Positions 3,001-63,288 of a DNA stretch of 64,000 nt are shown here, one piece after another. Numbering within the stretch: the stretch's first letter is position 1; every line of letters begins with the position of its first letter. Both the position numbers and the translations under genes were made by a program. Origin of the DNA: Yuukianura sp. NJ FZ-2021 (taxonomy: Eukaryota); the NCBI GenBank assembly GCA_046563655.1, contig CM102286.1, forward strand, positions 12,648,001-12,712,000, given 5' to 3'. The notes beneath the pieces are model-generated. The model saw nothing but the letters and a program-made list of their open reading frames with translations, made no database searches and was not told the DNA's origin.

Positions 3001-6000
3001 TTTGTATGGTCTGCCTTACGTGACCTACTACTGGAGTCGTTAAAAATAAAATAAGATTCCAAAAAAGTAAAAAGAAAGAAAACCAAATTGCACAAAAAGT
3101 TCTAAACCACTCTCCCCGCAAAATACTTTTGTGAACTGCCTTTGTTTCGCACATATTGCTTTCACCAAGTCTTAAACGCTGAGCCTCTCCCGCCATTTCT
3201 GCCTCCCCCAAAATGACACTTTCTTCAAAGTACTTTCCAAAGTGTGAAAACTACTCGACACAAAGTGATCTCATCCAAATCCAGTCTTTTCACTTCAGTC
3301 ATTTAAAATCCAGGCAATGTCGAATTGGAACACTAAAAAACTTTTGCATATTCGATTTTTTTTTCAAAGTAGAGACACTTTTTGCTGAGTTGGGATTTTC
3401 CAAAATTTGAGGTTCTAAAACTCCTAAAATCCCCTCTGTCTAACTTTGGTGCAAAACCTCAGAATGAGTTAATAAAAGTTAGTTGCAGTCTTTACCAAAA
3501 AGACTTTTCAAGAGCCAATTCATTTGCTAATTTCAGCCTTTCTCTTTTCGCCCACACTCACTTTCTAAATAGGTTTTCCCTGACTACAAGTTCGCATATA
3601 GCTTCCAATTTCCCGCCATTTAGAGGCTTTTCTCCATTGTCTCACCCTTAACCCACTCCCCACCGCCAACTACTTTCCAAAATGTAACTTCAGGAGGAAT
3701 CCATAGCCTAAAACCGTGCTAAGAACAGGACCGTGGCTTTGGATAGTTACTTTTTACGAGCCCATCCATTCCATCCAGGAAAGATCCTGTGTACTCCAAT
3801 TGAATAACCTCCTTCAAATTTCCACACATTACGATCTCATATTGAACACTCCCGTCGAACACTAGGTCGATCTCGTCCACTTTCCTAACCGAATCCTAGC
3901 TTTTACTGATATTTCCAATTTCCAGTTTCTCATAAAGGAACTTTTGGACGTTTGTTATTTGCGTCTCTCGACCTACATTGTACAACCGTCTCCTTGTCTG
4001 CTCAAAAAGCTAACGTCCTTTAATATACAATGTTCAACTCCTTGCCAAGAATTGAGCATCAGAGATAAAAGATTATTAGGAAGAGTTGGCAAGATCTTGC
4101 AAAGAAGTACAAAAAGAGACGCTCTTACACACGTAAAGCAACGCGAATTAAGAAAATTACAAGAACTATGTTGATACTTCCTCCTCTGCCAACGCCCTAG
4201 CTTGTCATCTCAGATTAGTTGAACCAAAGTTTTTGAACTTGCGTTTTTATTTATCTTTTCTTTTCAACACCCAACTTTCACACATTTCTAAAGAAAGATA
4301 CACATTAAACACGAGGAGAGACTCAAACAAATGGAGAGGACACCCTCATCAAGGCGTGTTCCTTCGTTCCGACAACCAGAGTCAGTTATGTCAACAACAG
4401 AAACAAATTGAAGCGCACGACTTGAAGGGATTTATGATGGAGGCTGGAGGAAATGACAAGTCGAAAACAGGCATAATTGGAAACAACTTCTTGGCAACGC
4501 CTTTCTTCCTATTCAAAATTTCTACTCAATCCAATTTCATTTTCCATTTTGATTCAAATTTCGATTTTGGCCACACGAATCACACTTTGGCGTATGGCCG
4601 CCATTCATTGAAAATTTACCGCTTTGAAAAAAGAGAAACCCACCGCGCCCTATGCCACTTTTGCCCTCGTCGGTTTCATGCCCTCCATTTTTTATGCTAT
4701 TCTCATGACACAAAGGAAAAAAGCTACAAAAGATTAAAAACTTATTTTTACTGGCCCATAAATTTTTCTTATACGTTTTTATGAGAATTTTTAAACTTTT
4801 GAACCTTACTACCCTACCCAATCGCTTGAACAAAGACTAAATCCATGGGGTTTGAAATTGGCAAGGGTTCGCAAGTCGTTCCGTTGTATAAAAAATTATT
4901 TACCAAAGGTTTTAACTTGCAAAATTTTAAATATTAATATTGAGTAAACTTCTTTTTCTTACACAGAGAACAGAAACTTGTGCAAATTTGCACAACATTT
5001 TTAGTACGAAGTACAAGACGTTCAAATGTGCCATGGGAGTGGGACTTGAACTCTAGCGGCAGGTCATAATTTTGCAGCCCGTGAGTCTTCATGTTACACG
5101 AGCTTTTACATCGCAAATTCTATTGTAATCTCTGTTCCAACTCTCCCAAAAACTCTGTTGTAAGTTTCTTAACGATTCTTTTTTTGCCGAGAAAGTAAAA
5201 ATCCTATGCTCTAGGGTAGTGTTTCTTTAATGATGAGGAGAGTCATAAATTACTTGCTGAGTAGAACACAATTAGTGTGGACAAGGGCTTGAGTGAGTGC
5301 CAGAGAGAGAGCGTTTGGATAAAAAGAACAATGGAATCATCTTCCTCTCTGCGGAAAACTAAAGGAGTGTTTCAGTATCCCCTCATGCATTGTCTACTTC
5401 TGTTCAAAACCTAAAACTTCCTCAGCATCCGTGGGCAGGATCAAGAACAATAGACTTCAAATCTCAGCTGGAAATGAACTTAAATCTCTCCTGAATAATC
5501 CGGATGAGATCCTAAAACCAAAACAACCTCAGTCTCCGTCAAATATTTACAATCTAGCATTTTGGCACGCAGAGTAAAAGTTTCTAAGAACAAGTGCCCT
5601 ACCTAAATATGCGTATAGTTTTACAAATGCATTCCGACAACGCCTCTTGTTCCATGTCATTGCGAAAAGTTGAACTCAAAATCTTTCAACGCAGAGAACC
5701 GGTTAGTGGAATTTCTTAACGAAATGAAAAATATTGGATACATTAAATTGAATGTGAGGTCAACTACAAAGTCACCTCAAATCAACAGAAAATTGAAATC
5801 CATTGACAGAAAAAACAAGTGACATTTTCAATTAACCGATTAATTGTGAAACACATTCTCACATGTCCAACCAGTAACCGCAGTTCAACCCTCAACCATG
5901 GGAACAATTATAACAAAAAAAAAAGTTCTTTAACCAAAAAAACAGGAACGAAAAAAATCCAAAAAGCCACACGGAAATTTTGAATTTCTTTTACTTTTCT

Positions 6001-19059: not shown

Positions 19060-22000
19060 ATGGCAGAAAATCCTGGACAATTGGAATGTCCTCAAGAAGG
19101 AAAAGATGTTTTGAAACTGCTTCGAGCGAATGGATGGGGCACTGGATTTCATAATCCATTTGCAGATGAAGAAAACAAGGCTTTGGAACAACGGGTAAAA
19201 CACGGAGGTCACAAAGTACCAAAAGTGAAAATGTTATCAACTTTTTCGATATTATTTTAGCTTGAGCAACTGCAAAGGAAGAATTTGCAACTCCGAAATG
19301 CTACAGAGTCAATAAGAGAAAACGTCTCTCACCTCAGAAGTCATGAACAGAATATCTACACTGACATTCGACTGAACCATGTATGACTTGTTCCCAGACT
19401 TTTCACATTGTCATTGTCATGAAGTTGAACTTTATGCCTTTCGAATAGGAAATGAGCAAAGCCAAACAGACACACTTGGACGATGAGCGGACAATCTTTA
19501 TCAAGTGTCAGAAAGATCATGCATTTACTATTCGCGAACACAGTCGACTGACCCATCAAGTCAAAGACTTCAGCGAAAGGAATCGTCATCGATTGGTAAA
19601 AAACACAATGCAATTCTTCAAAAAATTTGCACAAATCTTGGTCAATTTGTCATTTTTGCAACATTTTAGGTTGGTTTCGAGAAACGGCAGAAAGAACTGA
19701 AACACTCCATGCAGCAGATTGAGCAAGATCATAAACTCATTGAGTTTCTGCGTCAAAAAGAATTTGATATGGAAGATGAAATGGCTCAGATTTCAAAGTT
19801 CAAATCTTTGGATAAAGGGGAAATTCAGGTAACTGCAAAAATCTAAGCCATAATTTTCTTTACCACACAATTTCTGTCTTTACACGACTTTCAAAATTTC
19901 AAAATTTAGCAAATCCACAAAGATTTGCTGGTCCTCGAAAGAGACAATCGTGAGTTCACTCAACAACTGGAAATTGAGCTACAAAATACAAACAAAGCTT
20001 CAGATCAGTACCGCCGGCTCAGCATCGAATTTCGACAAGCACATCGAAAGAGGAAAGAAATGCTGCTTATGTGGAATGCCACATTGACTGCTGTCCGAGC
20101 CCGAGACAATGATTTACAGGAAATGGCAAATGTATGACATTACGTTAACGTTTAAACTTTCTTTTTAGTAAAAAGTTCTTTGACCTATGTATACTTTACG
20201 CATGCGCAGGAATACTTTGAACTGCATGAACGCGTCAAGGGTGAAGCCTCTACTCAAGAATGCCTGCTCGCCTTTCTCCAAAGTCGTGCCGAGGAAATGG
20301 AAGAAATTGAGTATCGTTCCAAGTTCTACGAAGGGGAAATTCGCACTTCGAATGAACAGCTAGAGAAATTGAGGCGGTTAATTTTGAATTTGAAAACTGA
20401 CCACTTACACACGGTTTCCGCAACTCAGAAACTCACTGCTCAAAATCACGAAACCAGACAGAAGATTAAAGTCATCCGAGACGAGTTTGACTCTAGATTT
20501 GACAAAGAAGGTGCCATCAAGGCAGAAGTAGAAAAGTTGTATGAAGAGCGTGACTACATACGCACCATTGCAAATGACCAAGAAAGACTACTCAGAGAAT
20601 TGGAGTCGATGTACGACGGCGAAGAAACTCGTTCAGCCAAATTAGAAAAACGTGGAGTCCTCATTCGAAAATTTCATTTTGAAAAGACAAATGAAAGACT
20701 GGAATTGGAAGAAAAAATTCGGACCGTCAGTACCAGAATGAACCTGATTAATCGCATCTTTGCGAGACTCAGTGCGAATGAATACGAAAACACATCCGAA
20801 GTAAGTTTCACAATCGCAACTTCACTGCGCATGCTCACATAATTTCAAATTTGCGTTTCTCAGATGGCAAAACGACAGAGTCGTCTGTACCGAGCGGATG
20901 TGGAAGTGAGCACACTGGAGGTTAAAATTTCCAGACTACTAAACACTGCCATCGAACCACGATTTTTCAAATTACAAGTACGCGAAGATCGTCTGCGCAG
21001 CAAAAATCAGCAAATCCTTACCACAAATACTTTTGTTGCAAAAGAAGCAGACCGTGTTTCAGGAATACTCGAAGCTTTAGTGAATGACATCGACGCACAG
21101 AAAGATCGGGCAAGACACCTTGACATCGCGCTTGTTGAAACACGACTGAGCGTTTCCGAGTAACATTTTTTGGCTACGAAGATCAATGTCCATTTGAGGT
21201 CAAAGGTCATGCATTGATGCGTTTCATTTGTTTATTGTTTCAAATTTTTTCAGAGTAACTCGTTTATCCCAAGGACTTTCAGAGGATGTGAAAGAACGAA
21301 CTTTTAAATACAATCTAATGAAAATCAGCGTCTCAAGATTGAAAAATTCAGTTGTCTCATTCAGTGGAAAAATCTTCAGCCTCGCTCAAATTCGAAGTCT
21401 CTTCCATACAGTAATTACTTTCCCTTGATACAAAAACTTTCTTCCTCTTATGAACTTTAGTTTAATAACAACTTTTTTTAGGCTGGTCTCGAGCGTAAAT
21501 CGGAAATTGAGTTTCACGTTGCGCTGATTAAAAAGAAAACGTCGATGCTGAAAAAAGAAGTTACCTTCCTGGAGTGTTCCAGCTATCGCACAAACACATG
21601 CATTTCAAAACTCAGAGTCAAGTAAGCAGAAACAACTTTTTCACAAACAATCAAATCAAATTATTTTCCAAATCGCATTTCATTTTCATTTTTTTAGGTT
21701 CGAATTGCTAAGTGGTGCAAAATCTGGCAAGGATCCTGGCGACGCTTTATTCAACGAAATGAAAGCAATCTTTCGAGACAGAGCAACTCTAAAACAGTTC
21801 GAAATTTTGAAACTCCTAAATTCAAAACCTCCACTCTAAAAACACTAACTCTGATTTTCGTTTTAGGCAACGTCTTCAATGGGAAAATCAAGTCGAGCAA
21901 GATTTGAAAGAAATCGAAGGTCTGAAAAACGTTTTAGAAGTCCTGAGAGGCAACAACGAGGCATACAAAATTAGCCTAGCGCCGGCTGACCAAAGTACTA

Positions 22001-22966
22001 AAAACCTGTTCCAAAGTTTAAAAACAATCCAATTTTAGAGAAAAAAAATTCTTACTAGAAATTGAAAAATTTCAGGCTGTGGCGGAGATGCAAAACTCCG
22101 TGAACTTCGAAGTTTGGAAAAACGGGTATTCGTCTACCGTAATCGCTGCAAACGGCACATTGAGAATCTGAATACAACTGTGCGAAATCTCAAAAAAGAA
22201 GTTGGTATAGCCAAGACCAATATTCAACGGGCCACTGCCGAAGCCGATGAAAAACTACTTGAAATGTCGAGTAACAAGGACGAAGCACTGTACTTGCGCG
22301 ATCGAATCGGTCGTTGGGACCAGCTCATTTCTCGTATTTCTACGGATGAAGCCACTTGGAGAAAACAAGGGCTCCTGTACTTCATTGAATTGGACTTGAA
22401 TCGAAAACTTGTTGAGGAAAAATATGAAGTGAGATCTTAAATTGAACCAGTAGCTGCACGTTACTCTAACTGTACCTCGTCAAATTCCACTTTCTTGGTT
22501 TCAGCACGCAATGCGAAAGATGCTGGCACTCATGAGACGAGATCTTCGTATTCGAAAAACAATTTATTTGTTTCTGCGAAAACATGGAATGATTGCCCAA
22601 TTCATGGAGAGATTCCAACTTACCGAACAGTATTTCCCTAACAAGTATTTTCTTGTGCTCTAAAAGTTTAACTCTATTTTGATTCTCAATGTTAGGAAAC
22701 TGTTTGAGCAATACTGCGAAGTACTTAGAGGAGAAAATGAAGACATCGAGGTTTGCAAAGCTCATGGTCAAGATGAAGGTCACGAAGAAGAATTTGACGG
22801 AGAAGAGGAAGAAGACATTGCCTCGTCCATTGTCCCGACACTGGATTCAATTTTCTCTTCCAGAGATGTGCTTCGAGGGGAAGATGAAGAGGATTTCCCG
22901 TCATCAGAACCGAGCGAACCGGTAATACCCCGGATTCCTTACTGCGACGAGTTGCCACAACTCTAA
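19060..22966 (+). CDS. CCDC39: CCDC39-like coiled-coil axonemal 96-nm ruler protein, complete 14-exon gene (~980 aa)
   Basis: GT-AG exons 19060-19194, 19261-19380, 19449-19595, 19670-19828, 19910-20131, 20210-20800, 20864-21159, 21254-21410, 21482-21621, 21698-21796, 21867-21994, 22076-22428, 22505-22629, 22696-22966 join in one frame (2943 nt). N-terminus GWGTGFHNPFADEENKALEQ resembles the CCDC39 motif W-x-DGF-x-IP-x-ANEENK-x-LE. KEIEGLKNVLEVLRGNNEAYK resembles [21 protein letters not shown] (both recalled from the vertebrate protein). Long coiled coil and acidic tail. Confidence 0.85.
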
Positions 22967-32045: not shown

Positions 32046-34375
32046 ACCCCACTTTGCTGCTACAAAATTGAGGCAAATTCAAACGCTCAAAAAACGTTTT
32101 CAAGAAAAAAGGAAGCGAAAAAAAGCTATAAATGTTAACGTAACGTTTTTATGTTCCTTTTGATGAAAGTTATGAACTGGAGCGAGGATAAGGAAAACGA
32201 ATTTAAATTGGGTTCATTTTGAGTAAGATGGGGGATTTTTGGTCCATGTCTTTTTTGAAATTTGAGTACTCGATTTTCAAAATAAAAGCGTTCTCTCGGG
32301 CATCATTTTCTGCGTGCTCTTGCCTACTACTTTCTCCACTTGACTTCCGCTGCCGCTAGCTCACTCCATCAAAGCCTGAACCGCCCAAATGAAGATTTTA
32401 AATTCATTAGTTTGGCGCTGGAAGTCATAAAGCGAAGAGGATGTGATGAATCAATTCCCCTTCCGAAAGACCCAATTTCCAAAAAATGCTAATCTAGGTC
32501 GTTCGTTAGTCACTTTCAAGTTTTTCTAAAACTTGGATAGAACTGAAAACGAACTTTTTGGAGGGTGATGAAGATGAGTATCTTATTGGGAAGTGCAGAT
32601 ACCAGCAAAAATAGTATAAAGATCAGAAAATCGCAGAAAAAAGTATTCGCGCTATTTCATAAAAATTTTATTTCCCAATAAATTCCCAAACGATTCTATT
32701 TCTTGGAAATCATCTTCGGTTTTCAAAAACTTCCGGAAAAAATAATCGTTGATACGAAGCAAAAAAAAAACTCATAGCATCACCATTTCGCGTAAAAAAC
32801 AAAGTTGCAATTGAAGCGTAATTTATGATTTTGGCTAATCAGATTTCATGTACCAGCTTTGATATTGATTTGAAAACTGGCGAAGAAAAGGGCATAAGCG
32901 AAAGCGAACACAACCGTCTGCGGTTGGCAAAATTTCAAAACTTGCCAAAAATCTTTTGTTCCGTGCGTCATTTCGGGTTCAGAAATTTTACGCACCACGC
33001 AGGTTTTGGCACAAAGAGAAAGTGAGGAATTTTGGTCTTATCAAAGTGAAAGTTTTGGAAGCAAAACCTCGTAGAAGTACCACGTGATTTGTGAGTTAAG
33101 ACCAAACTTCAAAATCTAATTCGATTTTCCACTTCTCTCTTTTGAAATGACTGAAAACTAATAATTCAAAATTGGATTTTTCTCTTTTCCAGCCCTTGTA
33201 AATATGAAAACTTTTTTCTCCTTTTTCAGAATTATAATTTCCTTCCATAAATCCTAGCAATTTCCACTTCAACATTTACCACCGCCAACCATAAGCTATA
33301 CGCTGAAGCTGAACCTTTCCAACCTAAAACGAAAACCTTAGCACCCATCAAAGCCTTTTTTACAACAACGGAAGTATTTTTTTTTTACTCAGTAAGAGTC
33401 AAAGGCTCTTCCAAAAACTCAATTAGTTCCTTTGAAAAGTTTAGACTTGAAAAAAAAAGTTTTCAAAGTCAGCCGCCAACATTTTTCGTTTTCTTTTTAG
33501 TGGCATGTGGGAACTTTCAACGCCATTTTGAACTTTTTTCTCTTTAAAGTTTGAACATTGCTGTTCTGTTTGATGGTTAGACAGAAAAATGACGCATTTC
33601 GAAATTACCCCAAAAATTCATGACCATTCATGTTTATGCCTTTGCATTTTTAAGAGTTCAAAATTTTGAACTTCAACGATTTTGAGGTTCCCTTTTGCAC
33701 TTTAAAAAAAACTTAAATTAAGTCATCAAAGAAGATCTCTTCATCTTCCGCTTGCTGTAGTTACACTTTCGAGATGTGGACTGATAAGCCTGGGGCCACC
33801 ACCTCTCAATTCCATAACAATAGGTGCAAGGAAGAACATTCCCTAAAGTAAAAATTGCACTGGTCACGCTTGGTGCTTATTAGAGACCCGTAAATTATAG
33901 ACTTTAGGCATGCATGATATGCATAGCAGCTTCAATTTCAACTTTTCACTTGTCTTGGAAAAACTTGAAGGAAGAAGAGAGAAAAAAATTAACAATTTTT
34001 GTTGGTGGTGAGAAGTTACATGAAAGAGGAAGAAATTGTTTAATTATCCGGCAGAAATTGCATTTGACTCTTGAAAGAGAAAATCTACCTTTTGCTGTTG
34101 GTGTTAAGAAATTATCCGACAACATTCTCATCTTTCCTAGAAAAACTTGCATTTTTTGACGTTCAATGTCAGACCGAATGAAAGTGAGAATTGAGTGAAG
34201 TGTTTGGCGTTAAAACGTGAATTCGAAATTGAAGCGTCATGAACGATCACACGGTTCCATGCAGTGGACTGGAGGCGATTTTATTTAAAGTTACAAACTT
34301 TAAAAACCTTCATGCTATTGTCTGTACTACTACTAAAAAATAATTTTTACACAATACTACAAACAATACATGAAT

Positions 34376-34443
34376 AAAAATAGTTTTTTTTTTAAATAAA
34401 AAATTAGATTCCACAGCTGGAGTATATCCGAAAAATGCAAACT
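34376..34443. mobile_element. Short (~70 bp) dispersed element, copy 2, flanked by the 11-bp direct repeat AATACATGAAT
   Basis: Same core as 6073-6124. Direct repeats at 34365-34375 and 34444-34454. Confidence 0.55.
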
Positions 34444-34539
34444 AATACATGAATTCTTTTTATTACTCGCAGTTAGAAAGTTATTCCTTTTGTTTACAAT
34501 TTCGCGCGTGATTAGTTTGTGATTTTTGGAACGAGAAAA

Positions 34540-35058
34540 TTAGCGAGTTAGAAATATGAAGCCGACTCCAGTATTTGTGTAGGTTGGCCTTTTTCCAGTA
34601 GACACGAAACGCACGTCGATTCCCGTTGCTTTACAGTGCGCGTAGTCTCCGGAAGCCGTAAATCGAATATTGATACCCGCTGCTTCGCAATACGTTCTTT
34701 CTCCAGTTGATAACACGTCAATGTCTATGCCAAATGCAAGGATAGCTACATCGTCTGCGTATGTTATGACTGTCCAGCCGACTCCCACTGCCGTCACTTT
34801 GATATTGCCCCCAAAAGCGTAGAAAATGCAGTTGGAGGTTCTGCAGCGTCCCTTCAACACGTATGTGTGTCCGTAACCGGAAGCAATGAACATACGCCAG
34901 TCTACATAAGCAGTAAAATTTCCTCCGCTAGGTGAGGTAACTTCGGGATCATCAGCGTTGTAGTGGTACGTAGCAATCCAGCGATTCCAAGCAAGAACAG
35001 TTAAAACGACCAAAACTCCAGCCCATTTAATGATGAGCTGCACGTTCGAAGGAAGCAT
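34540..35058 (-). CDS. Intronless small protein (172 aa): N-terminal signal/anchor plus 9-aa Gly-periodic repeats (predicted beta-solenoid), paralog B
   Basis: First in-frame ATG at 35058 (MLPSNVQLIIKWAGVLVVLTVLAW). Repeats IDIDVLSTG/ERTYCEAAG/INIRFTASG/DYAHCKATG/IDVRFVSTG. Frame preserved against paralog A. AATAAA at 34459-34464. Confidence 0.8.
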   Translation of the reverse strand: MLPSNVQLIIKWAGVLVVLTVLAWNRWIATYHYNADDPEVTSPSGGNFTAYVDWRMFIASGYGHTYVLKGRCRTSNCIFYAFGGNIKVTAVGVGWTVITYADDVAILAFGIDIDVLSTGERTYCEAAGINIRFTASGDYAHCKATGIDVRFVSTGKRPTYTNTGVGFIFLTR

Positions 35059-35360
35059 TTCGTTCAAAACGGAATTGAATGAATACAAGCTGCAGCACTA
35101 GATATGGAAGGACAAAGCACGACCACAGTAGCGTCGATACGACAAGAAGTCTTCACGGTTGACCCTACAAGCGACGCTGCGTTCGGACTCAGCGTTAAAA
35201 AAGACGAAACGGAAGATGAAGAGTTTTTTGTTCATAACTTCAAACTCTTGGTTTCCGTCGTCATGAAGACAAAAATTCAAAAATTCTTGGGCAAGAATAC
35301 ACCGCGATAATTCAAGTTCGAAAGAAAGCACAAAAGTGAGCGGTTTTATTAATGCTAATT

Positions 35361-35924
35361 TTAAACTAATTGCCAATCTCCGACGTGGTTAATTTGATGT
35401 TTTGGTAGAGGATCCGATTCGCCGTTTTCAAATGTGAATCCGAGCCCGTCATCGATGTAGGTTGCGTGGTTTCCTTTGGCCATAAAAGTCACATCATATC
35501 CTTTGGAAACACAGCGAGCATAGTCCCCGAACGCTGAAAACCGAATTGCGATACCCGTAGCTATGCAAGTGGTCCATTTTCCAGTCGAAACTACGTTGAT
35601 GACGATGCCACTTGCAGTAATGTTGACTTCATCGCCATAAGTGTTGACAATCCATCCGATTCCAGCCGCAATCACGTTGACGTTGTGTCCGGTAACGCTG
35701 AAGACGCAATTTGGAATTCCGCAGCGTCCATTCAACTCGTAGGTATGTCCGTTACCGGATGCGGTGAATACACGACCGTCTTCGGATGTCCAAATTTCGC
35801 CTCCGCTTGGCGACGTTACTTGAGGAGGTGGTTCGGGCTTGACATACTTCGTAAAAATCCAACCGGTGATAATCATAGAGCAGAGTAAAATAAAAAGCTC
35901 GCGCAGCAAGTGAAGGACGTCCAT
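35361..35924 (-). CDS. Intronless small protein (187 aa): N-terminal signal/anchor plus 9-aa Gly-periodic repeats (predicted beta-solenoid), paralog A
   Basis: First in-frame ATG at 35924 (MDVLHLLRELFILLCSMIITGWIF is hydrophobic). About 54% identical (70/130, counted by hand) in an ungapped alignment with 34540-35058. AATAAA about 10 nt after the stop (35345-35350). Confidence 0.8.
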   Translation of the reverse strand: MDVLHLLRELFILLCSMIITGWIFTKYVKPEPPPQVTSPSGGEIWTSEDGRVFTASGNGHTYELNGRCGIPNCVFSVTGHNVNVIAAGIGWIVNTYGDEVNITASGIVINVVSTGKWTTCIATGIAIRFSAFGDYARCVSKGYDVTFMAKGNHATYIDDGLGFTFENGESDPLPKHQINHVGDWQLV

Positions 35925-38900
35925 GACGCAAACAGCGCTCTCTGGTACCAAAACTAAACCAACTGCCGCTGCAGAATTTAGGAATACAACAGCACCGACC
36001 GCCGATGACCGACCGCAGAAGCGCAAACTCAGCGCTGAACAAACAACTTAACGCTTCAACAACGCTAGGATCGAATACAGCGTCGTTGTTATGAAAACGG
36101 AAGATGAAGAGTATGAATATTTTTAGGTTTTCTCATAATTCAAACTGTTCCCGTCGTCAAAAAGAAACAAGTTCAAAAAATTGACAACATGACTAGAAAC
36201 CAATCCGTATGAAATTACAAATTGAGCAAGGTCATTCAGACAAAAATTGTACACCGGAGGGGTGTCCTGGTCGGCTTTTAATTTTGAAAACCAGAAAAAA
36301 GATTCCCGGTTTTAAGAATTTATAAAGTTTTTAAATTCAAAGAATTCGAATAACAAAAACTGGTTTTCGAGAGTCAATCATATCATTTGCGACTTTAGTG
36401 AGTTGATGAAGCAAATGGAATCTTTAAAAACTTGGAAGATCAAAGTTTGAACAGCAGTTTACAATCAAATGATCTCACGAAAAAGTATTTAAAATAAAAA
36501 ACAAATTATAAAATTTAAAACTAATTTAAATTCACTGAAAGCCAAAACGTCGACCAACAAAAAAAACGACGTAAAAAGCAATTAAATTCTTGAACTCTTG
36601 ATAAATTCATTGTTCTACGAATAATTAATTTAGCAAATGAATGATTTCAGTCTTTAAAAAATCAACCATCGACGGCAACATGTAACACTGTCGTCTATTA
36701 CTTCATTCATAATTTTGCCATCAATTGGCTTGTCTTGTCACATTAAAAGAATTTTATGTTCTGCAATAATTCAGGAAAATAAAATTTTACGTTTTAGCAA
36801 AAAATTGAATAATTTCTTGTATTTAGATGTCACATATCTTTGAAGCAATTTTTTTCAGGTTATAAATCTTCGCCAATGGGCCAATGATGCAAACCAGAAA
36901 AGTACTCAAAGTTTTAAATTGCTTTACAAAAGCCTCTTTCGAATCATCGTTTGTACCTACATTTCATATTATTCTCACAAGAGATTCTCGAAAACACGCA
37001 AACAATACCTAAGGGGGTGCGTCCCTCTTCTCTCTCTTATAAAGACATTTTAAAAAATTTGAATTCACCCGCCTCGAGTCCATCACGTTCCTGGCATATC
37101 ATTAGCTCATTCCCCTAACTACCCTCCAATCTAACTCACCTTCAATTTCTAATTTATTACCATCAATTTGAAGTCTTAGTGTTTGAAAAGTTTGCAAGTC
37201 TCAAGCATCTTAGAGGTCAAAGGTCACAGGCGGTCCGTTTTCAAAGACAAGACTTGGGTATTGGGCTGAGCCCAGTCAAAAGCAAGAGTTAGGCTAACAT
37301 CTCTTGTTCTTTGTCAAGATGACATTCTTGTGGGGTTGTGAGGCTGAGCTTGGACAGGTAACAACAAACGGAATCAAGGTGTGGTGGCAGTGAGTAATTC
37401 CCTGGTGTTCCCTGACTACTAAATGGACGTTAATTGAAAAGGCGTGTCTGATGAGAGAGGCTAAAAATAGAAACAATGATGATCTGGAGACTTGATTTGA
37501 AGCCAGAGAAACTCAGAATAAACTAAACACGACCTGCGCAGAAAGAAGCACACGAACATGCGGGGTTAATAATGAAGACCGAGGTTTTTCAAATCTCATT
37601 GTTCTGCCTATCAGAGACTCGTCAAAACAGATAGCAACAGGAATTCCGTGTTGACGTTCTCTTTCCATGTACTTACAGCCTAACCTTCATCTTTGATTCA
37701 TTGCTTTCAAAACAAGGAGCAACAAAAAGAGAAAGTTACTATTTTGAATCCTCGCGCGGAGAAAACATATTCATCTTCTGCTGTAAGTTCTAAAGTCTCC
37801 TGCTTTCCTTTCACTATGACTCTTGGGAGAATTTGAAAACTTCCTTTCTGACTCAAAAAATGAAATATCGCCTAGGATCTTTTTGAACTACTAAAAACTG
37901 AAATTTTGATTGCGTGCTACGGAAAGTACAGACTACGAAGGGCTTCCTGTCGTAAGATCTTCAAAAGCAAATGGTTCGTGCTGGTTGAGCAGCAACAGAA
38001 CGCTTTTGAAAAATCTGGTTCAGAGAGAAATGAAATGACAGCATGGGAGACATAAAAAGACGAAAGACAAAAGTCCGTTTTATCATTTCCTTTGTCAGTT
38101 TTCTAAAAAGTTATGAATATCGCCTTTGTCCAAAAATCTGGCCAAGCATAACATTTACATAATTTTCATAATTATAATTCATTTGATCTAAACATCCAAG
38201 TCATTTCACGGTTCTGTGATCTCACTTCAGTCTTATGTCAATGTTGAAAATATTCAAAGCCAAAGACTTGTGGGACAAACTCAACCAATTTCGCATCAGA
38301 AACCTACAGAGTAATTTTTTAAATTCATTAATTTGAAGACAAAAAATTATTTTGTACGACGTGAGCAGTTTAAGTTGAATAAATTTTTTTTCTGGTTTAA
38401 AATTGAGAAATGAAAAAGTTGACCTCTTGCTCTCCAGGAACGGAGGTTTGAAATTACTCAAATTTAACGGAATGGAGCAAGTTTTGTTGCATGATAAATA
38501 ATTGGAGACAGCCTCAAGACAATTACATTTACAATTACTATAAATCAAAACAGAAAGTAATCATAGCTTATTTCCTTGTTCCATCTGGTTTTTAAGAGAC
38601 CTAGCACGATAACAATCGTTTTATAAAAGAATTTCTCCTTCTCGCCTTCACAACCTTACACATATATTTTTTATGACATTTGGTCCAATTGTTCTGGACT
38701 CAAGGGGTTTAGAATTCAGTTCCAGCAGGTGAACTGGACTTTGAAGTTTTAGTAAAATTATGACCAGAGTAAAGTTAAATTTGAAGTGCTGGAGCTCTTA
38801 AGTTGATGACTTTCTTACCCCTTTCGTCTCAAAAGTGTTTGGAAACATCCAGTCATAAAATCATAAACTCACTCTCTAGCACACAGATGAAGGTTGATAG

Positions 38901-46881: not shown

Positions 46882-63288
<16,407 letters not shown>

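Follow-up and report, generated by a model that had tools for sequence, protein, structure and literature searches.

Beta-solenoids of short coils have been described in several systems. CARP helices are right-handed, place five coils in ~85 residues (~17 residues per coil) and carry interior cysteine stacks that are unbonded (PMC4539340). RTX rolls put two nonapeptides into each right-handed coil of 18 residues. The solenoid antifreeze proteins of arthropods arose repeatedly by convergence, and the known ones show ordered TxT-type threonine arrays (PMC13080227). With regard to the nonamer proteins YdhT and DUF7666 of bacteria and phages, our literature search found no published work on the structure or function of the former (judged by title and opening of the abstract of the papers listed) nor on the latter; several papers on 'YdhT' deal with Bacillus, which has a mannanase of the same name. 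Here, we describe two genes, A and B, that lie in tandem on the minus strand of a 64,000-nt stretch of the Yuukianura sp. NJ FZ-2021 assembly GCA_046563655.1 (contig CM102286.1, positions 12,648,001 to 12,712,000; 'the window' in the following). The genes form a genuine, constrained, lineage-restricted pair as judged from their sequences, and their products are modelled as a calcium-free nonapeptide beta-helix outside any curated family.

The gene pair and its repeat code

Both genes are single, intronless reading frames. Coordinates refer to the window.

35361..35924, minus strand: gene A, complete intronless coding sequence including the stop; 187 amino acids (aa), protein P0002; one ATG-to-stop frame, paralog of gene B
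35841..35918, minus strand: N-terminal hydrophobic helix of gene A, residues 3-28, next to a KYVK + PEPPP hinge; predicted helix, hydropathy maximum 1.91
35424..35819, minus strand: beta-helix body of gene A, residues 36-167; from alignment, structure prediction, autocorrelation and structure comparison
35364..35423, minus strand: C-terminal tail of gene A, residues 168-187; no counterpart in gene B, model confidence (pLDDT) below 50 for residues 169-187
34540..35058, minus strand: gene B, complete intronless coding sequence including the stop; 172 aa, protein P0001; one ATG-to-stop frame
34972..35043, minus strand: N-terminal hydrophobic segment of gene B, about residues 6-29; hydropathy maximum 2.03 from residue 6, aligns with the helix of gene A
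34552..34941, minus strand: beta-helix body of gene B, residues 40-169; gapless alignment to gene A at 53.8% identity

The hydrophobic N-termini (maximum Kyte-Doolittle 19-residue mean, KD19, of 1.91 and 2.03 for gene A and B, respectively) are followed by the linkers KPEPPPQ (gene A) and NADDPE (gene B) and by the 7-mer VTSPSGG, which is identical in both. From this cap (35799-35819) the body of gene A continues with a first coil of D-x-R/ASG type, a 13-residue insert with a C-x4-C pair and 10 regular nonamers. A glycine occupies the fixed nonamer position in 10/10 consecutive nonamers of gene A and 9/10 of gene B. Two nonamer types alternate, i.e., x-phi-x-phi-x-S/A-T-G plus a polar residue and x-a-x-C/Y-x-A-x-G plus a hydrophobic residue. 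Four cysteines are conserved in both paralogs, namely the C-x4-C pair and an i/i+18 pair (Cys120/Cys138), and R51 of gene A, located in the first coil, is the only invariant arginine. The bodies align without gaps at 70/130 identical residues (53.8%); for the whole proteins BLASTP reports 48% identity (E 4e-47).

We assessed the periodicity by BLOSUM62 autocorrelation versus 300 shuffles. Gene A shows z=5.6 at lag 9 and z=6.9 at lag 18, gene B 5.2 and 8.5. Neighbouring lags range from z -3.1 to +3.8, where lags 8, 10, 17 and 19 are negative or below 0.5 and, near lags 9 and 18, only lag 16 exceeds 2 (2.4 in A, 3.8 in B). At the DNA level, no tandem repeats of period 27 or 54 were found in either gene, which is why we consider the coils old. 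A regular expression search for GGxGxD and its relaxed form G.G.[DN] gives 0 matches in A, B and their homolog P0004 (introduced below).

The preliminary description of this locus, made from the letters and a list of open frames, is accurate in its coordinates, strand, translations and intronless tandem arrangement. Its common plan of hydrophobic N-terminus, Pro/acidic linker and VTSPSGG cap is borne out by the KD19 maxima, the predicted helix of gene A and the alignment, and the nonamers that it quoted for paralog B occur exactly as such in the translation. The 18-residue super-period, the gapless 130-aa cores at about 54% identity and the absence of the RTX motif GGxGxDxUx all hold given the values above. 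Only its count of 11-12 consecutive nonamers needs correction: the Gly-ending units are real, and the strictly regular ones number 10 per protein, plus irregular flanking turns.

To quantify selection, we used Nei-Gojobori (NG86) counts for the 130 aligned body codons of A versus B. The nonsynonymous rate (dN) is 0.34 and the synonymous rate (dS) 1.26, i.e., a ratio of 0.27 with pS > pN (z=5.95), and identity by codon position 1/2/3 is 0.71/0.75/0.48. A ratio near one, which in combination with a lack of expression had been named beforehand as a sign against the pair, is thus not seen in the repeat body. The first 34 codons are near-neutral (dN/dS 0.83). Since the body ratio is this low at near-saturated dS, both copies have stayed open through a long divergence.

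Variation was read from contigs of public DNA datasets aligned to the region; all five datasets that cover the stretch are DNA. For gene A, the contigs of a second organism show 10 differences in 357 coding bases (among those listed, two synonymous and one I44V). Over 259 bases of the upstream flank they show 17 differences and a further 18 gap letters, and over 228 intergenic bases at least 13 differences. Two DNA datasets contain, beside a near-identical version of gene B, one that is ~13-14% diverged (34702-35099; 34764-34962). In the same-sample dataset, insertions of 2 nt and 1 nt within 5 bases keep the frame of this copy, which may stem from a third paralog or from a haplotype with deep divergence.

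Among the 19 open frames of at least 120 aa in the window, the two stop-to-stop frames (185 and 228 aa) belong to the four longest, and tblastn with both proteins finds no copies in the window beyond these two. The flanks carry the following elements.

36095..36159, minus strand: upstream blocks of gene A in common with gene B, TGACGACGGGAAC (36147-36159) and ACTCTTCATCTTCCGTTT (36095-36112); from flank comparison
35207..35263, minus strand: counterparts of these blocks in the 5' flank of gene B, TGACGACGGAAAC (35251-35263) and ACTCTTCATCTTCCGTTT (35207-35224); from flank comparison
35345..35350, minus strand: AATAAA, candidate polyadenylation signal 11-16 nt past the stop of gene A; read from the sequence
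34459..34464, minus strand: AATAAA, candidate polyadenylation signal ~76-81 nt past the stop of gene B; read from the sequence

About 250 bp of 5' flank are common to both genes, with the blocks TGACGACGG(G/A)AAC and ACTCTTCATCTTCCGTTT (18/18 identical), so the duplication unit takes in this flank. The ACTCTTCATCTTCCGTTT block of gene B is polymorphic in other DNA datasets; its constraint is therefore doubtful and we claim no regulatory role. Both genes show CTGCAGC ~35-55 nt 5' of the ATG, possibly a splice-acceptor-like site. A plus-strand open reading frame (ORF) of 68 aa between the genes (35104-35310) was rejected as a gene, as nothing equivalent lies upstream of gene A. Shortly past the downstream end of gene B, the summed contig depth rises ~10-15-fold at 34364-34491 (3294 vs. 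~234) and many contigs end at 34385-34446, which suggests a short dispersed repeat or transposon fragment that overlaps the candidate poly(A) region of this gene.

Predicted fold and relatives

Structures were predicted with AlphaFold2 (AF2). The model of gene A, based on a 2-sequence alignment, reaches a predicted local distance difference test score (pLDDT) of 78.4 and a predicted template-modelling score (pTM) of 0.70, with a helix at residues 3-28, an all-beta part at 35-167 and a disordered tail at 169-187. The solenoid of the homolog P0004 alone reaches pLDDT 92.3 and pTM 0.87. We compared both models exhaustively with 48,161 chains using VIA-align. The best match of gene A is the CARP domain of human CAP1 (1k8f, Z 13.4, root-mean-square deviation (rmsd) 2.6 A over 127 residues), followed by the yeast CARP 1k4z (Z 12.7) and the Cryptosporidium CARP 2b0r (Z 12.3) and, further down, an RTX block (7usl, Z 11.0) and the antifreeze roll MpAFP of Marinomonas (3p4g, Z 10.3). 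For P0004 the respective values are 13.4 (1k8f), 13.0 (1k4z), 12.6 (7usl) and 12.4 (3p4g). Across both models, the three CARP chains span Z 12.0-13.4, TBCC and RP2 score Z 8.0-9.7, and the 7usl_C alignments of these predicted models have an rmsd of 1.9-3.0 A. Since RTX and antifreeze rolls lie within ~1-3 Z units of CARP, the match is one to a geometry class.

The modelling thus supports a parallel beta-helix with 18 residues per coil, two nonamers each. This agrees with the two-sided, RTX-like beta-roll put forward in the preliminary description, given both AF2 models and the VIA-align top rows (CARP, RTX, MpAFP). Of the check it had proposed, i.e., AlphaFold combined with Foldseek, the first half returned the all-beta solenoid, while Foldseek gave no match at E <= 1e-3 in PDB (both models) or BFVD.

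Sequence searches place A and B outside the curated families. No Pfam, PHROGs or PDB sequence family matches them. In hmmscan at E <= 10, where HMMER filters drop most matches above ~E 0.1, CAP_C (PF08603), TBCC (PF07986) and the RTX family HemolysinCabind are unreported for whole proteins and isolated bodies. DUF3060 (PF11259), which had been suggested as a candidate relative, is likewise absent from the results for both proteins and for the body of P0004, such that this suggestion falls. Two hits were set aside: Pfam Binary_toxB_2 (E 0.08-0.13; 12-13 bits vs. a cut-off of 25) is taken as chance, and the designed 'Cake' propellers of the PDB (E 8e-6) trace back to one stretch of 20 residues (47-66) that recurs in the target, and no stretch passes by itself. 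The PDB profile search shows nothing below E 0.15. In a word-indexed protein search, 0/41 candidates of P0002 reach E <= 0.01 and the P0004 solenoid matches itself alone. The best feature score in the ESM Atlas is 0.82 (below the useful range); its YdhT cluster at rank 8 (0.79) was used as a lead alone, and no named cluster matches the P0004 body. Papers found under 'nonapeptide repeat' and 'beta-solenoid' describe RTX rolls and prion or amyloid cores and, within this literature search, no like protein.

A HMMER profile search of 1.84 billion representative proteins gives 8 matches at E <= 1e-3, among which P0004 (282 aa) is the one full-domain match (E 7e-7). BLASTP relates it to B (E 8e-17) and A (E 3e-12) from its SSPTGGEF cap to the C-terminal end. 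The claim that the pair represents an unrecognised animal family stands insofar as there is no curated family match and one full-domain relative in 1.84e9 proteins; it needs qualifying in that CARP, an animal domain, has this coil geometry.

P0004 is a J-domain protein. Its DnaJ domain (PF00226, 82.2 bits vs. a gathering score of 27.8), closest to DNAJB1-type domains, starts at residue 23 and is followed by a glycine/phenylalanine-rich (G/F) stretch, SSPTGGEF, a first coil with D-x-R and an ASG-type turn, and nine very regular nonamers up to the C-terminus; Pfam finds no J domain in A or B. Cap and glycine register are kept at 30% identity, while P0004 is without the 13-residue C-x4-C insert and has Phe in place of the stacked Cys pair of A/B. 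It is encoded by one ORF of a metagenomic contig of 5.4 kb (L001), which also carries an interrupted exon of an inward-rectifier K+ channel (IRK, IRK_C; 4016-4429), consistent with an animal source. Within the P0004 solenoid, positions 1886-1950 of the contig form a 27-bp tandem repeat (2.4 copies, 92% matches, unit GDGIVFNSV), which marks the nonamer as the unit of duplication, recently copied. The first ATG (1301-1320 of L001) is directly followed by the splice-acceptor-like TTTTACAG, and a second in-frame ATG lies 15 codons on, which leaves the N-terminus and compartment of P0004 uncertain. Scans for the cap pattern confirm 1/179 candidates in metagenomes (L001 itself), 0/41 in viral contigs and 0/241 in prokaryote genomes. 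The occurrence of the solenoid behind either a membrane anchor or a J domain with G/F stretch, as read from the sequences, argues for an autonomous module.

The other seven profile matches are bacterial or phage nonamer proteins with units resembling xQLxASGxx. DUF7666 reaches or exceeds the Pfam cut-off in 4/7 of them and is found below cut-off in a fifth. A, B and P0004 match the NCBIfam model YdhT (NF007410) at E 4e-6 to 6.5e-5, i.e., weakly, since the scores of 23.1, 26.6 and 22.6 bits compare with a family cut-off of 300; Pfam reports no N-terminal YdhT_N/DUF7666 domain in the three. YdhT of E. coli K-12 (b1669) has ~13 nonamers between unrelated end domains and aligns with gene A without gaps over 84 aa (BLASTP E 1e-7). 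P0004 matches a protein of Paracoccus phage Shpa by tblastn (32% identity over 100 aa, E 5e-5), and P0002 alone has no match in 50,697 phage records. The hhalign probabilities are 67% for YdhT, 90% for P0005 and 9% for P0009. BFVD models of the Shpa protein and a DUF7666 protein superimpose on the P0004 model with an rmsd of 1.0 A over 103 columns (template-modelling score 0.79, 24-31% identity), for which the Foldseek E-value is 0.03. YdhT is without a solved relative in PDB.

A profile of the three animal sequences scores 35-68 bits on 8/8 bacterial and phage proteins and at most 6.1 bits on 48/48 controls (8 reversed, 40 shuffled), where 7/8 real proteins had been preselected by a similar profile and are thus not independent. 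As the real proteins score far above the controls, the match is motif-specific. The similarity ends at the repeat, i.e., caps and end domains of animal and prokaryotic proteins do not correspond. Taken together, sequences and models indicate that the repeat core of A, B and P0004 is of the same type as that of YdhT/DUF7666, and both common descent, which would imply transfer into arthropods, and convergence of a short repeat are possible. On the prokaryotic side, the DUF7666-type protein P0009 occurs in 70/50,697 phage records (among 15 listed, 13 are hypothetical and 2 a 'putative ADP-ribosyltransferase'), and P0003 combines a Macro domain, DUF7666 and the repeat, with DUF3060 at 32.3 bits. 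This hints at a link of the family to ADP-ribose biology.

Role, orientation and origin

Our favoured reading, to which we give somewhat more credence than doubt, is that the constrained paralogs encode a membrane-anchored, calcium-independent beta-helix that serves as a binding or display scaffold with its body on the exoplasmic side. The N-terminal hydrophobic helix would act as the signal-anchor of a small single-pass protein, and the Pro/acidic hinge would carry a ~130-residue, right-handed beta-helix that is independent of calcium. Its body would be built from x-phi-x-phi-x-(A/S)-x-G-x nonamers, two alternating types of which make up one 18-residue coil, with five regular coils, an N-cap (VTSPSGG...D-x-R...ASG...HTY) and a closing G-phi-x-F strand. 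The conserved Cys pairs (C-x4-C; the i/i+18 stack) may stabilise the helix. As a rigid, non-enzymatic scaffold in type II orientation, the body would be tethered to the cell surface or to a secretory-pathway membrane, where the N-cap and the flat faces would be free to contact a repetitive ligand or a partner. The outward positions of A and B hold a mix of charged, aromatic and aliphatic residues. One outward position per nonamer is mostly aliphatic in A and B, not in P0004, and hints at a stripe for protein-protein contact or self-association; when both bodies are modelled as an A-B complex, without alignments and controls, the score is 0.01 (mark 0.34).

With regard to orientation, the hydrophobic segment of gene B is preceded by a charge of +2 and followed by one of -2. 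These charges, the pairable cysteines and the hydrophobic N-termini, all read from sequence, put an exoplasmic body slightly ahead of a cytosolic one.

Several observations weigh against this assignment. The genes are known from DNA alone, and the literature search revealed no published ligand, partner or phenotype for any relative, YdhT/DUF7666 included. No more than 2-3 sequences went into the alignments behind the models, regular repeats are readily predicted as solenoids, a Z near 13 in repeat proteins can reflect merely a shared arrangement, and Foldseek gave no match at E <= 1e-3. The sequons for N-glycosylation are single and at non-conserved positions (N101 in A, N47 in B). In gene A, K26 and K29 (within KYVK) plus PEPPP directly follow the helix, as in anchors that leave the body cytosolic. 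No segment of P0004 is strongly hydrophobic (KD19 maximum 1.22), and the CARP analogs are cytosolic with unbonded interior Cys stacks (PMC4539340).

The last three points feed a different placement, which we consider rather unlikely: the helix could be a reverse signal-anchor with the short N-terminus in the lumen, such that the body faces the cytosol at an organelle membrane and provides a CARP-like or co-chaperone-like docking face for a protein of the cytosol, e.g., a small GTPase, a client of Hsp70 or a monomer of the cytoskeleton. CARP is the top structural match of both models (Z 13.4), its ~17 residues per coil and Cys stacks resemble the i/i+18 pair Cys120/Cys138 (PMC4539340), and P0004 joins its solenoid to a G/F stretch and a DNAJB1-type J domain. 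However, the identity to CARP chains is 2-9%, CAP_C and TBCC are unreported at E <= 10, and the closeness of RTX and antifreeze rolls in Z reduces the CARP match to one of geometry class. Gene B has flank charges that speak for the opposite orientation, and the J domain of P0004 begins only at residue 23, so that a short signal peptide could precede it, as in lumenal J proteins of the endoplasmic reticulum.

With either orientation, the origin could be horizontal, i.e., the nonamer core could stem from a bacterial or phage gene of YdhT/DUF7666 type that passed into an arthropod lineage, lost its prokaryotic end domains and gained the cap together with a membrane anchor or J domain. We regard this as doubtful, too. 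The genes are intronless in the window and on L001, and besides P0004 the significant matches among 1.84e9 proteins are 7 bacterial or phage proteins and no other animal protein. The similarity is motif-specific, backbones lie 1.0 A apart at 24-31% identity, and P0004 bridges both groups (E 5e-5 to the phage protein). On the other hand, the similarity is confined to the repeat with YdhT_N and DUF7666 unreported in the animal proteins, the cap pattern was confirmed in none of the 241 prokaryote-genome and 41 viral-contig candidates, P0002 alone matches nothing in the phage records, and the hhalign probabilities (9%, 67%, 90%) are inconsistent. Furthermore, short repeats converge easily and no tree can be rooted on them.

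A more far-reaching version, which we rate as clearly less probable still, is that an arthropod lineage captured a helix of this type horizontally and domesticated it as a portable, calcium-independent binding module, which was joined to a membrane anchor and duplicated in tandem in one case and joined to a J domain in another. The module would be directed at a repetitive target, e.g., an amyloid-like beta edge, a polysaccharide or the surface of ice or a crystal. In the J-domain fusion, the solenoid would recognise the client or ligand, which would make the protein a novel type of Hsp70 co-chaperone.

Binding of ice or another crystal by a flat face of a secreted or surface-bound solenoid is very unlikely. 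Tandem intronless copies of an arthropod beta-solenoid with hydrophobic N-termini would suit it, as would MpAFP 3p4g among the top rows (Z 10.3 and 12.4) and the repeated convergence of arthropod antifreeze solenoids (PMC13080227). The ordered Thr rows of these antifreezes are missing, though, which is why we do not favour the idea: TxT occurs 0 times in gene A and 2 times in gene B, both in the last coil, and the outward positions are mixed. A membrane anchor is, moreover, atypical of haemolymph antifreezes.

Least credible of all is that A and B are unexpressed or decaying duplicates without present function. The evidence from DNA alone, the tiny family and the near-neutral first 34 codons (0.83) would fit this reading. 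Against it speak a body dN/dS of 0.27 at near-saturated dS, frame-preserving indels in the third, diverged copy, a cap and glycine register kept at 30% identity in a homolog from another animal, and an AATAAA after both stops.

Neighbourhood and comparison with described systems

The pair lies ~12.5 kb downstream of the last recognisable exon of unc-13 (Munc13), whose 3' part occupies the minus strand from 48495 to 59000 and beyond towards 64000.

55086-55346, 56429-56767, 57430-57711 and 58724-58999, minus strand: MUN-domain exons of unc-13; 119/180 frames scanned
~48.5-48.7 kb, minus strand: C2C-like exon of unc-13; matches the C2C region of Munc13-1

For one MUN exon, hexapods lead the named matches, with Orchesella at 92% identity and bees, beetles and flies at 83-90%, ahead of crustaceans and chelicerates (73-80%). 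By these matches, the window belongs to an arthropod, probably a hexapod. On the plus strand, 20156-22440 holds two long open frames (228 and 124 aa) that are rich in heptad-like charged residues and without Pfam match; they probably represent exons of a gene for a coiled-coil protein. Scanning the window for Rfam families and tRNAs gave no matches.

If our favoured reading is true, animals have a new, uncharacterised beta-solenoid domain whose strict calcium-free code places a Gly in every 9-residue unit and two such units in a coil, and which comes with a defined N-cap and in two natural fusion contexts (membrane anchor; J domain plus G/F). It would provide the first structural and evolutionary handle on the widespread, unstudied YdhT/DUF7666 repeat proteins and point to a possible cross-domain transfer of a module into arthropods. 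The J-domain fusion would represent a new class of co-chaperone substrate-binding domain. With three sequences and pLDDT 92, the solenoid would also be a compact, confidently modelled scaffold of the kind used in antifreeze, adhesion and biomaterial design.

With regard to the known systems, CARP (CAP, TBCC, RP2) comes closest in structure, with Z 13.4 and an rmsd of 2.5-2.6 A over 115-127 residues for the models of gene A and P0004. Like A and B, it is an animal domain and right-handed, with five to six coils of ~17-18 residues and interior Cys stacking (PMC4539340). In contrast to A/B, CARP proteins are cytosolic and have neither a membrane anchor nor a strict Gly nonamer, the structural alignments show 2-9% identity, and the CAP_C/TBCC profiles are unmatched.

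The RTX roll has the nonapeptide and the arrangement of two units per 18-residue right-handed coil in common with A/B, and adenylate cyclase toxin blocks match the models at Z 9.2-12.6. It differs in its calcium motif: GGxGxD occurs in 0/3 of our proteins, whose units contain one Gly each and form no Asp ladder, such that the folding of A/B cannot depend on calcium in RTX fashion. RTX proteins are type I secreted, whereas A and B are animal proteins.

The antifreeze solenoids (Tenebrio, spruce budworm, Clubiona spider, MpAFP) resemble A/B in that they are small, lineage-restricted and often encoded in tandem, and MpAFP is a high structural row for the models of gene A and P0004. Yet, the coils of the arthropod antifreezes comprise 10, 12, 15 or 24 residues in the examples described in PMC13080227, and their regular Thr arrays are without counterpart in A/B.

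YdhT and DUF7666 proteins, finally, agree with A/B in the repeat itself: each unit of 9 residues contains one Gly and an (A/S)(S/T)G turn, and the calcium motif is absent. Their units are near-uniform, while A/B alternate two nonamer types with an 18-residue super-period. They also have an N-terminal YdhT_N/DUF7666 domain and a conserved C-terminal domain, neither of which is reported for A, B and P0004; the animal proteins instead combine a distinct VTSPSGG/D-x-R cap with either a membrane anchor or a J domain. Overall, the gene pair is a variant on a known fold, combining the CARP/RTX-helix geometry with a core of YdhT/DUF7666 type, rather than a new system.

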